This document shows positions 22,601 to 28,520 of a DNA stretch of 64,000 nt, piece after piece. Source of the DNA: Schmidtea nova. Lineage: Eukaryota. The DNA lies in assembly GCA_044892505.1 (NCBI GenBank), contig CM097883.1, positions 159,774,001 to 159,838,000 of the forward strand, in the 5' to 3' direction. Numbering within the stretch: the stretch's first letter is position 1; each line of letters starts with the position of its first letter. A model generated the notes under the pieces. It did not search any database and was not told the origin of the DNA. It worked only from the letters and a program-made list of their open reading frames with translations. The position numbers and the translations under genes are program-made.

Positions 22601-25600
22601 CATCACACATAGGTAAATCATATTTTTCTATTAGTTTGTGATTTGGCTCAAATATGCATTCCTCATCTGGTGCATTTGTAACATCTGCATAATATATTAT
22701 TTCGCTTTTTGATGGTACTTCAACCATTTGATTTAGAAATACTTCTCCGATCTCCTCAATAACTTCACCAGTTTGACCTTTCACTAATTTTCCGGTATTT
22801 AGATCGAGTGAGATTCCTTTTAACTGCTCCATAACGTCCATACCAATAAGGCATTTAACCGGGCTCTTTCTCATTACCACTACCCAGTGGGATATCTCTT
22901 GATCTCCAATCTTTAATTTGGCTTGTACTTTCCCTATGATGTTCAGCAAATTATGCGACATTGATTTAATACGCTTATTCGTTGGTTTCATTTCTTTAAT
23001 TTCTTGATACATTAATAATTCCTCTGACACAATAGTATGACTTGAACCTGAATCTAATAAGGCTTGCACTTTTCGATCATTAAATAAGACATCAATCCGA
23101 GGTTGTTTTCCTCCCGTTACCATCGTCATTAGTGCATAGCTGCATGGTAATCCGAGCATATTTTTGCGTTCAATTTCTGCACTCGTTGGTTCAATTTTCT
23201 CTGTTCCACTTTGAATATCATCTAATGGTTTCATCTCTTTTAACTTTTCTCCAGGATATACAGGTGCTGTCGGTACAAATGTTGGAGTATACCATCGAGT
23301 TAGTGTATCAATTCCGCTTAATTTTGGCATTGGTTCTAGTAAAAATCTAGTTTCTGGTTCTGTTTTATTTTTCAATATACCCTTCCGATAATATTTTGAC
23401 TCGGTATTACCTCCATCATTATTATTGTTCTGACTATTGATCTCTTCCGATTGACATAATGATTCCTCACTTTTTTGATCCTTTCTCAATTGTGCTCTTA
23501 CATTTGCCATTTCTTTGTATTGATGATTTGTAATGAAAAATCTGGCCAAAAATGGGATACAACTGATTATTATTTTCCATGACCATCCGGAAATAGCGTA
23601 TATTCTATGTGCTGACAACACTTGCGATACTATCACTTTCATTGTCACTGCAATTACGTAGATTCCAATTAAACCGGCACAAGCTTGCCCTAAGAACATA
23701 AATTTACCCCAAATCTTTTCCATTGTTTTATACGTGGCTCTTTTAAAATGATCGGGTGTCAACAAATACTCATAATTCACTTTTCCCTCTCCATTGGGTA
23801 ATATTGTATCAACCATTTCTGAAATTACCCTTTCCTTTTTCGATGGAAATAACAAATTTCTTTGAGCCTCTTCGATATCTTCGCTAGCATACAAACCCGT
23901 TTGTGCCATTTTATTTAATGATGTGAAATTTACTAAATATTCTAAGTTCGTTAATTCTAATTTATCAGGTGTTTTTACTCCTCTGTAATCTGGTAACGCT
24001 ATCCATGAATCTGGCGTTAAACGATACAACGGCGCAAGTAGTCGATTGCATTGTAATATTTTCGGTTTCGTCTGTTCTTCAAGCAATATTCGAGTAATTG
24101 GTTCCATAAATCGTAGCTTACCCCCAACACTTACGGGTAACTCATTTGTGCATTTTTCATATTTTGCAATTTTTACAGCGATTTCCTTACATTTGTAACT
24201 ATATAATGCTTCTCCAAAAATTCTCGCAAATACGCCATTTTCCGATATCAGCATAGGGGCTACTAAGTTCGGGTTTGTGACTGCCATTGCCATTCGATTC
24301 CGAAGAATCTCTTTATTCAATTTACAATCATTAAGAATCATTTCTCTATAAACATTCTCCATGATGTCCTGACTAAAATGAAATAAATAATCGATTTTGT
24401 TATTGAAATAATGCGTTAATTTAATGTCGTTTACATGAATTTTAGTTTTTGCGTCTTCAACTATTCCTTTTGAAACATAGACGCCTTTATAATTTGTTGT
24501 ATATAATATTCGCCCACATTTATTCGTAACTTCCTTTTTTATAAAACGCATGCTATCCATTGGCGATGTTGACATCAGAACTGCACTCATTTTCCTGGTC
24601 ATTATTGGAGTTGATTTAATTGCTTCTTTTGATTTATAATTCATGCTAAAACTATCGGGTCTTTCCTGAAATTGTTCTCCGATTATTTCTTTAAAATTCA
24701 TAGTTTTTAGAAAAGCCAAATTACATTCATTTACCTTTACATTATAAACTAAAATCGACTCTCCTGTTTGACAATTTGTCTGTTTCATATTACAGAATGG
24801 ATGTGTCTGTAATTTTCCCGTATCGTCATCAAATGCTCCTTCGAACTCTCTAAGTTCCGTAACGTACTCCTCAAATACTACCGTTTTATCCACCATTTTA
24901 CCATTCATTTTATACGGTTCGCCTTCGCAATCTCCATTTGCTTTCATTATCCCTTTCACAACTACTGTCTCTCGTATTCTGTGATTTAATTTAGCTTTCA
25001 ATCGGATTTCCGAACTTATTTTTAATTCTCCTGTTTGAAATGCTGTCAAACAATTTTCTGGAAAAATCTCAACTGGTCTCGGTATTGCATTTACTTTTAT
25101 TAATGACGAGTGGCTCCACTTTCCACAATAAAACACAAACGTTGTATGTTTCACGCTACACTCTCTAACTTTAGTTCGTCGTAAATCTGATTCTTGATAT
25201 ACGTGGTATTTTACATCATTTTCAACTTTTAACTTACTCGGATAGGCACCTGGGCATTCTGACATATCTACTACTGAATAGATTTTTCCCATTTCCGTTT
25301 GGGAGCAATCGTATGCAACTAATGATGTCGTCTGCGTAATAACTGTACACAAGATAATCATTGTAAACATCAACCATGGAAATATTCCGATTCTTTTCGT
25401 TTTCAGCCTGACTTTCTCACACAATTGTCTTGCTCCTTCCTCATTTTCTTTCGTATCTAGTGGTGGGCACAATGTCTTCCAGCCACCCTTTTCTTTTACC
25501 CAATTTATTAAATATTCATTTAGCATCCTGGCTGCCGTATCTATTAAATCATCCAACTCTTTCGACTTTACAAACGCATACGTTCCTATCTCTAAAATCG

Positions 25601-28520: not shown

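Follow-up and report, generated by a model that had tools for sequence, protein, structure and literature searches.

We analysed a stretch of 64,000 nucleotides from Schmidtea nova (GenBank assembly GCA_044892505.1, contig CM097883.1, positions 159,774,001 to 159,838,000), hereafter called the window, and found on its minus strand a gypsy long terminal repeat (LTR) retrotransposon of 15.8 kb whose polyprotein carries a Bcl-2-fold domain. The polyprotein, 3,359 residues when counted from the first Met, runs in one frame from Gag through two units, each with a helical and a ubiquitin-like (Ubl) domain, to the Bcl-2-fold domain, a hydrophobic segment, the envelope glycoprotein (Env) and Pol. The assignment of the domain to the Bcl-2 family is strongly supported by profile searches and a predicted structure, and we regard it as nearly certain. 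Taken as a whole, the reading that we prefer, held at slightly less than even confidence and drawing on sequence and modelling, is that the Env signal would leave this domain on the cytosolic face of the endoplasmic reticulum (ER), where it may dampen host death or stress signalling through a non-canonical surface.

The Bcl-2-fold domain and its motifs

The domain and the segments discussed as Bcl-2 homology (BH) motifs map as follows.

25452..25853, minus strand: Bcl-2-fold domain, frame residues 924-1057, assigned from the AlphaFold (AF2) model, VIA-align and the profile match to Bcl-xL
25830..25868, minus strand: IKRNLVRVEKEVD, in the N-terminal part of helix 1 and distinct from the BH3 position
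25728..25751, minus strand: BH3 position, VEEIVKEL, on helix 2 (model residues 54-71); PF00452 position 3 maps to model residue 55
25623..25634, minus strand: BH1 position, NREV where NWGR is canonical, placed by the profile alignment
25479..25505, minus strand: BH2, NWVKEKGGW, with both Trp and the last Gly invariant in 21/21 aligned rows

Loci that combined a BH2-like motif with an Env start gave 109 matches, 14 of them containing stops, and from these loci 21 stop-free representatives with less than ~95% identity were listed. The alignment used here (A2) has 21 rows, namely the window domain, 19 loci and the public protein P0004, and excludes cellular Bcl-2 sequences. The Pfam Bcl-2 profile (PF00452) matched the window domain with an E-value of 0.0015 and 19.5 bits over profile positions 3-100 of 100, and 18 of the 21 aligned relatives matched it at E<=0.1, the best at 3.5e-8. 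In a PF00452 search of the genome, copies from related families exceeded the Pfam cut-off and reached 34.9 bits. The A2 profile found Bcl-xL at E 2.8e-8, and a profile of the 15 closest rows alone found Bcl-2 at E 1e-4, so that the homology to the Bcl-2 family extends over BH1-BH2.

An AF2 model was built from A2, and thus from retroelement sequences only. The model showed a predicted local distance difference test (pLDDT) score of 71 and a predicted TM-score of 0.62; the core was confident (pLDDT 74-91 in ten-residue blocks across residues 11-140), and the linker and tail were poor. The model revealed a helical bundle around a central hydrophobic helix 5. Upon comparison with 48,161 chains in VIA-align, the first 34 rows were all Bcl-2-fold proteins and the first unrelated chain scored Z 5.7. 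The best row was HyBcl-2-4 (Z 13.6, root mean square deviation (rmsd) 2.9 over 128 residues), followed by values of 13.0 for BAK and 12.8 for Bcl-xL, although VIA-align itself warns that helical bundles can score Z near 13 through arrangement alone. The Foldseek rows shown for the PDB were Bcl-2 family members in 46/46 cases, and viral Bcl-2 proteins were on top in the Foldseek viral library. The top ESM Atlas matches were Bfk, BID and Bcl-G clusters (0.88-0.92), with a recognition value under the tool's mark that makes them a lead only. The initial annotation had proposed a Bcl-2-like domain at this place and had named AlphaFold and Foldseek as the way to examine it; because both structure and profile searches return the Bcl-2 fold, that proposal stands. 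A chance match of the WxxxxGGW pattern was ruled out by the agreement of profile, Pfam and structure on one family.

The motifs quoted in the initial annotation all exist on the minus strand in one frame (IKRNLVRVEKEVD at 25830-25868, NREV at 25623-25634 and NWVKEKGGW at 25479-25505), and two of the three assignments held. The WxxxxGGW pattern aligned with BH2, and NREV aligned at the position of NWGR, as expected of an altered BH1. The third assignment was incorrect: IKRNLVRVEKEVD, which had been called BH3, corresponds to model residues 14-26 within the first helix (residues 11-39), sits at or before model residues 19-26, where Bcl-2 structures begin to align, and is not conserved in families C-F or in P0004. 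The BH3 position is instead occupied by VEEIVKEL, because the start of BH3 in the Pfam profile maps to model residue 55. In this segment VK takes the place of the usual GD. The LxxxGD pattern was not found on helix 2, as the Asp was missing in nearly all rows and the small residue was kept only in families D, F and G. One family-D copy contains NWDR together with LADIGNQI; it was not used as evidence for canonical motifs, since its sister copies contain NRDR and LADNIGN.

At BH1, no row showed the NWGR pattern with Gly and Arg that characterizes canonical pro-survival proteins. The Gly position was acidic in 20/21 rows and Asn in the remaining one (Gly in 0/21), and the Arg position was Arg or Lys in 6/21 rows and hydrophobic in 15/21, including the window. 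Published work links BH3 binding and survival activity to the Gly and Arg of BH1 (PMC9027176, PMC2836074) and reports that loss of the Gly abolishes activity in Bcl-2, KSHV Bcl-2 and F1L (PMC2836074). Canonical activity, that is, classical inhibition through the BH3 groove, is doubtful because the BH1 Gly occurs in 0/21 rows; it is not excluded, because motif-poor viral proteins that bind BH3 ligands and substitute Arg residues are known. Modelling the domain in complex with a BH3-like peptide of the host gave a score of 0.01, obtained with the alignment unused and no controls.

The hydrophobic segment and Env

The domain is followed in the same frame by two further features.

25323..25415, minus strand: likely internal Env signal peptide, with a basic n-region, an h-region from 25391 and a polar c-region ending in TTS; predicted cut at 25323/25322
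23388..25322, minus strand: Env, a chuvirus/monjiviricete-type (gB-like) fusion glycoprotein (PF24664, E 1.1e-87, profile 5-647 of 653), with a membrane anchor near 23628-23684

The order of BH2 and hydrophobic segment was as initially annotated, and the distance was not: the segment is separated from the BH2 Trp by 29 residues rather than ~25. The glycoprotein behind it was confirmed by the in-frame PF24664 match, which starts inside the hydrophobic segment in the 3 families where the match came as a single stretch. In 21/21 rows the segment combines a basic n-region with a hydrophobic core and a c-region of 5-8 residues, with small residues at -3/-1 before xxAYDC or xxTYDC, and the -3/-1 rule was satisfied in all of them through eight different triplets. 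In an offset control from -10 to +5, only the predicted cut reached 9/9 lineage representatives; the next best position reached 7/9 and lay within the core. These results come from our own rule-based script rather than a trained predictor, and the 21 rows are related, amounting to about nine observations. The expected signalase-type signal for the glycoprotein is thus supported by the -3/-1 rule and the basic n-region.

The initial annotation had further suggested that a Bcl-2 tail anchor may double as this signal. A hydrophobic segment is present at the place expected of a C-terminal tail anchor, yet it is internal and has the anatomy of a signal peptide. In a recombinant copy described below the segment stays with Env, and a similar segment lies after the integrase in 8/8 families, with a C-terminal membrane helix in 6/6 families for which the frame end was fetched. 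The Env signal was therefore upheld and a tail anchor belonging to Bcl-2 itself was not; judged from the sequences, the segment is most likely the Env signal, with anchoring of the upstream chain as a possible by-product. With this further hydrophobic segment after the integrase in 8/8 families, the polyprotein seems to use internal signals as a general means.

A membrane-anchored, viral-type Bcl-2 released by signalase had also been proposed. The cytosolic position beside the membrane agrees with our analysis; a free-standing Bcl-2 is overstated, because signalase alone would leave a precursor of ~1,066 residues. Upstream of the signal this chain consists of Gag, helical domain, Ubl, helical domain, Ubl, acidic linker and Bcl-2.

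The accessory block, its evolution and its function

The layout is common to eight families of this genome, and the Bcl-2-fold domain is kept in all 8 and in one public sequence (P0004). It belongs to an accessory block that contains, in addition, the following domains.

26856..27062, minus strand: four-helix domain, repeat 1, from AF2 helices; internal repeat score 109, where 300 shuffles reached at most 62
26613..26840, minus strand: Ubl domain 1, no C-terminal di-Gly; VIA-align Z 9.5 and rmsd 1.3 over 72 residues to ubiquitin, profile E 1e-4
26373..26585, minus strand: four-helix domain, repeat 2, from the internal repeat and AF2 helices
26088..26354, minus strand: Ubl domain 2, no C-terminal di-Gly; profile match to ISG15, E 4e-4

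A model of the two Ubl domains matched di-ubiquitin/ISG15 in Foldseek at E 5e-7, and both Ubl folds are supported by profile and predicted structure. Their use as di-Gly cleavage sites was ruled out, as the di-Gly is missing. Profile, structure and Atlas searches found no family for the four-helix repeat (no usable Atlas match); the repeat may resemble TFIIS N-terminal domains. The helical-plus-Ubl unit (window 26088-27062; loci L088, L089 and L090) is double in families A, B, F, G and H and single in C, D and E.

We found that this block has been exchanged as a cassette between near-identical Gag and Env. A recombinant copy (L153; also L021 and L028) was 97-99% identical to the window element in Gag and Env and 80-91% identical over residues ~500-1049, which means that the whole helical-Ubl-Ubl-Bcl-2 block was exchanged. 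Because the dense differences cease where BH2 ends, with no change in the signal region, the hydrophobic segment travels with Env in this one event. A second diverged patch lies at the Env tail of the recombinant copy (residues ~1650-1750). In comparison with families B and H, the Bcl-2 domain was 45-50% identical, Env 81-84% and reverse transcriptase (RT) 94-96%; for the block as a whole the identity was 45-50%, compared with 81-86% for Gag and Env.

The Bcl-2 domain is under purifying selection, judging from codon comparisons. The ratio of non-synonymous to synonymous substitution rates (dN/dS) on the Bcl-2 core was 0.20, 0.20, 0.19 and 0.27 in four disjoint deep pairs (p<=2e-7; 10 pairs tested). 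The six shallow pairs gave 0.31-1.10, three of them not different from neutral; values near neutral are expected there, because decay after insertion dominates.

The phylogeny against host Bcl-2 sequences, which the initial annotation had called for, was computed with 13 element domains and 10 host-like single-exon Bcl-2 stretches, leaving out rows with stops and near-duplicates. All element rows fell on one side of a branch with support 90/92, below the tool's mark, and no donor of the domain was visible among these sequences; the tree delivered the separation, short of that mark, and not the origin. It allows one old capture of the domain. Host-like Bcl-2 exons, including ones that are Bax/Bak-like by eye, were found in the genome with PF00452, and six loci (L038, L040, L044, L052, L058 and L061) belong to a multi-copy group of short, divergent host-like Bcl-2 sequences, several with stops, which may be a gene family or mobile copies. 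Outside this genome, relatives were found in 0/655 candidates for the region in full-length polyproteins, in 2/386 cases, both matching the Env start alone, and in 0/7,999 longer candidates by profile, all of which is weak evidence on range. A search of 1.84 billion representatives gave 2 matches, of which P0004 is a true relative and P0003 was dropped as a repetitive false match.

Another high-copy element of this genome contains open reading frames (ORFs) resembling inhibitor of apoptosis proteins (IAP; BIR and RING) and TRAF (RING, zf-TRAF and MATH) beside a protease-ankyrin polyprotein (L155:6071-7267, L155:7466-8941 and L156:2-3007; 150/150 scored BIR matches, most in 399-codon frames). 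This cargo is that described for Burro1, a planarian gypsy element discussed below. The Ubl neighbours of the Bcl-2 domain and these IAP/TRAF-like ORFs would be in keeping with modules of death and ubiquitin signalling having been captured more than once.

In the reading that we prefer, the hydrophobic segment would very probably insert as a signal, with signalase cutting after TTS to give the Env N-terminus. Whether the cut signal would then persist as an anchor for the Gag-Ubl-Ubl-Bcl-2 precursor is evenly balanced. The element's protease would need to trim this precursor, freeing capsid and a smaller anchored Bcl-2. With the BH1 Gly lost from every family and the Arg from the window's clade, such a domain would more likely work as an adaptor, by analogy with the Bcl-2-fold signalling inhibitors of poxviruses, than by sequestering Bak/Bax in the classical way; the benefit would be survival of particle-making cells. 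Its function would most likely be host-modulating and non-canonical. A bolder version, which we place on the unlikely side, is that a single membrane segment would serve both as the signal of Env and as the anchor that places a captured Bcl-2 with rewired motifs on the ER, and that the Ubl-Ubl-Bcl-2 block would be swapped between lineages as a host-facing cassette that keeps producer cells alive. A Bcl-2 of viral type would then function outside DNA viruses and clash with host cell-death control.

Several points weigh against parts of this reading. Besides VIA-align's caution about helical bundles, the window's own domain falls below the Pfam curated cut-off (19.5 vs 31.4 bits), the best Foldseek E-value was 2.6e-3, with no row reaching 0.001, and three of the six shallow dN/dS pairs do not differ from neutral. 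The uncharged stretch is just 14-21 residues in families C-E and P0004, which is weak for a lasting anchor, and a cytosolic Pol requires that a second, moderately hydrophobic stretch after the Env anchor (residues 1674-1692) stay out of the membrane. The modest scores of the window domain alone (Pfam E 0.0015; phmmer against the PDB, E 0.1-0.3) could suggest a chance match or a neutral passenger sequence, a possibility that we consider highly improbable and largely refuted, given that profile, Pfam and structure agree on one family and that dN/dS is near 0.2 in four deep pairs. The motif losses, moreover, do not speak for an adaptor alone: viral Bcl-2 proteins without recognisable BH motifs (DPV022 and F1L) still bind Bak, Bax or Bim (PMC11209288), and other Arg residues can substitute for that of NWGR (PMC7719400).

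The domain might also be read as a classical pro-survival Bcl-2 of viral type, whose groove would sequester host Bak/Bax or BH3-only proteins through contacts that replace NWGR. The helical bundle is complete and BH2 is intact, the best structural rows are pro-survival proteins with bound BH3 peptides (HyBcl-2-4 and trBcl-2L2), the host genome has Bcl-2-family exons, some of them Bax/Bak-like by eye, and the motif-poor poxvirus proteins just cited keep BH3-ligand binding. We consider this unlikely, as the BH1 Gly is missing in 21/21 rows and the Arg in the window's clade, a loss of Gly that abolishes activity in the three proteins named above. In addition, an anchor derived from the signal would suggest the ER as the destination and has no basic tail at its C-terminus. 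Such a tail is the rule for mitochondrial tail anchors. Loss of any death function is assumed in a further explanation, in which the bundle and the cut signal would act like a matrix protein and tether Gag to the membrane with Env for assembly or budding. The covalent connection to Gag right at the membrane in 8/8 families and the degenerate death-related motifs agree with such a tether, and purifying selection is compatible with any function; we regard it as decidedly unlikely, however, as evolution is much faster in the block than in Gag and Env (45-50% vs 81-86% identity to families B and H) and as exchange of a cassette between near-identical Gag and Env looks more like host-facing cargo than an assembly interface. 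It is also conceivable, and in our view improbable, that the element protease or signal peptide peptidase would free the domain to the cytosol as a soluble Bcl-2-fold adaptor, the hydrophobic segment being only the Env signal and never a tail anchor. This would agree with the signal anatomy and the short core in several families, with the variable linker from BH2 to the cut (42 to 67 residues across rows), with the retention of the segment by Env across the recombination junction and with the similar segment behind the integrase in 8/8 families. The position after BH2, however, is that of Bcl-2 tail anchors and is kept in every family, and no protease site was identified in the linker, where none was testable.

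Viral Bcl-2 proteins have been studied in large DNA viruses, and here a Bcl-2-fold domain appears under selection in at least 8 retrotransposon families of one genome. It would exemplify a Bcl-2 fold that selection maintains even though the BH1 glycine has been lost. The many families with long open frames offer a small, expressible domain with which to probe the manipulation of host apoptosis suggested in PMC6431247, in a planarian host, with which the close Env match and the Burro-type cargo agree and for which cell death and stem-cell turnover are central.

The element and known systems

The remaining features of the element are as follows.

28897..29765, minus strand: 5' LTR, 869 bp, TG...CA, one mismatch to the 3' LTR; 4-bp target-site duplication ATCC
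28876..28893, minus strand: primer-binding site, complementary to the 3' end of host tRNA-Trp(CCA)
18441..28622, minus strand: single open frame of 3,393 codons, first Met at 28520, encoding Gag, accessory block, Env, protease (PR)-RT-RNase H (RH)-integrase (IN) and a C-terminal membrane protein
27333..28520, minus strand: Gag, retrotransposon capsid (PF03732, E 1.4e-7) and CCHC zinc knuckles (PF00098, 3 stretches; four CCHC patterns by reading)
19743..23108, minus strand: Pol in gypsy order, namely protease, RT, RNase H and integrase, from Pfam
18444..19625, minus strand: C-terminal extension with a second signal-like hydrophobic segment, a domain of ~325 residues and a C-terminal membrane helix, from hydropathy
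16618..18027, minus strand: second ORF, 469 codons, with a DEDDh/RNase T-type exonuclease domain (PF00929, E 2.8e-8 on 16900-17601)
13953..14821, minus strand: 3' LTR, 869 bp, with the polypurine tract just before it

LTRs, target-site duplication, tRNA primer site, Gag and the PR-RT-RH-IN order identify the element as a member of Ty3/gypsy (Metaviridae), and the gB/chuvirus-type env between gag and pol places it among errantiviruses of the GAG-ENV-POL gB type. The element is young, multi-copy and recently active, because its LTRs are near-identical and 150/150 scored candidates of a genome search with the domain matched, at 100% to ~50% identity and many in frames of ~3,400 codons. The tRNA-Trp 3' end that matches the primer site occurs 1,984 times in the genome, all on one strand, and ARAGORN called tRNA-Trp at the one locus scanned. 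The tRNA-Trp(CCA) genes form a tandem array with ~282-bp spacing (L164-L167, G000 C3 near 128.0 Mb) and correspond to the element's primer tRNA. A Pfam scan of the C-terminal extension (18444-19625) gave no match; the predicted membrane protein fused behind the integrase was found in all eight families. The exonuclease domain was missed by whole-ORF scans of the second ORF. Contigs of three runs cover the element, which has no bearing on transcription or splicing.

Elsewhere in the window, positions 1-801 and 1045-4465 are a 99.6-100% identical second piece of the element's 3' part (C-terminal extension and exonuclease ORF), ~15 kb from the full copy and with the rest of the element missing, which may be a duplication, a truncated insertion or an assembly artefact. 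An LTR fragment of the element with 74% identity lies in opposite orientation at 30686-30900, and remnants of hAT-type transposases were found at 60535-61857 on the minus strand (DUF4371, E 5e-15) and, by eye, at 39608-40372 on the plus strand.

The closest published layout is that of the planarian Burro gypsy elements, in which Gag shares a frame with Ubi/SUMO-like and BCL2-like motifs and with a mononegavirus-like env that precedes the protease (Arkhipova and Yushenova 2019, PMC6431247). That paper names Grohme et al. 2018 as the source for the BCL2 motif of Burro-2, -3 and -4, and it already suggests that Burro cargo meddles with apoptosis and ubiquitination. The placement of Bcl-2 before the glycoprotein, given in the initial annotation without reference to Burro, is thus present here and had already been published. 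The order Ubl, BCL2, env and PR in one frame, followed by RT-RH-IN, is shared by Burro/GYPSM1 and the window element. In contrast, Burro exceeds 30 kb and encodes 4,873-5,140 residues, compared with 15.8 kb and 3,359 residues here, and BIR, MATH/TRAF, ankyrin and dUTPase, the cargo of Burro1, had no Pfam match at E<=1 in the window polyprotein or second ORF. The window element also has two helical-Ubl repeats and an exonuclease ORF, and it was set beside Burro-2/3/4 by description only. We therefore file it as a GAG-ENV-POL gypsy element of Burro type and, by the described layout, a compact Burro relative; it is not Burro1, because its size and cargo differ. Burro transcripts are reported to rise on PIWI loss (PMC8532177).

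An eLife survey describes six GAG-ENV-POL gB-type elements from Schmidtea mediterranea (PMC13524379). Smed_errantivirus_1 from that survey shares the Gag-Env-Pol order and a gB/chuvirus-type Env, with 48/60 of the first ENV residues matching the window Env by eye. In its main text and 7 supplementary files the term 'Bcl' is absent and the accessory block is untreated. A structural or functional study of the domain, or a signal-peptide reading, was not found in the full-text literature, a coverage that omits most subscription papers; within it, the evidence on fold, selection, motif loss and processing was likewise not found.

The domain has the same fold as the viral Bcl-2 proteins of large double-stranded DNA viruses (KsBcl-2, BHRF1, A179L and F1L) and the poxvirus proteins A46, A52, B14 and N1, and several poxvirus Bcl-2-fold proteins show degenerate BH motifs, as does the window domain. 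A46, A52 and B14 act as signalling adaptors. Whereas the Bcl-2 proteins of double-stranded DNA viruses are encoded by stand-alone genes, the window domain is part of the polyprotein of a reverse-transcribing element, and its membrane segment is likely a cleavable signal. In the C-prM region of flaviviruses and the core-E1 region of hepatitis C virus, the capsid is anchored by the signal peptide of the next protein. The window element resembles them in that a cytosolic domain is followed by an internal signal for a downstream glycoprotein; the viruses and folds are unrelated, and the likeness is an analogy of processing only.

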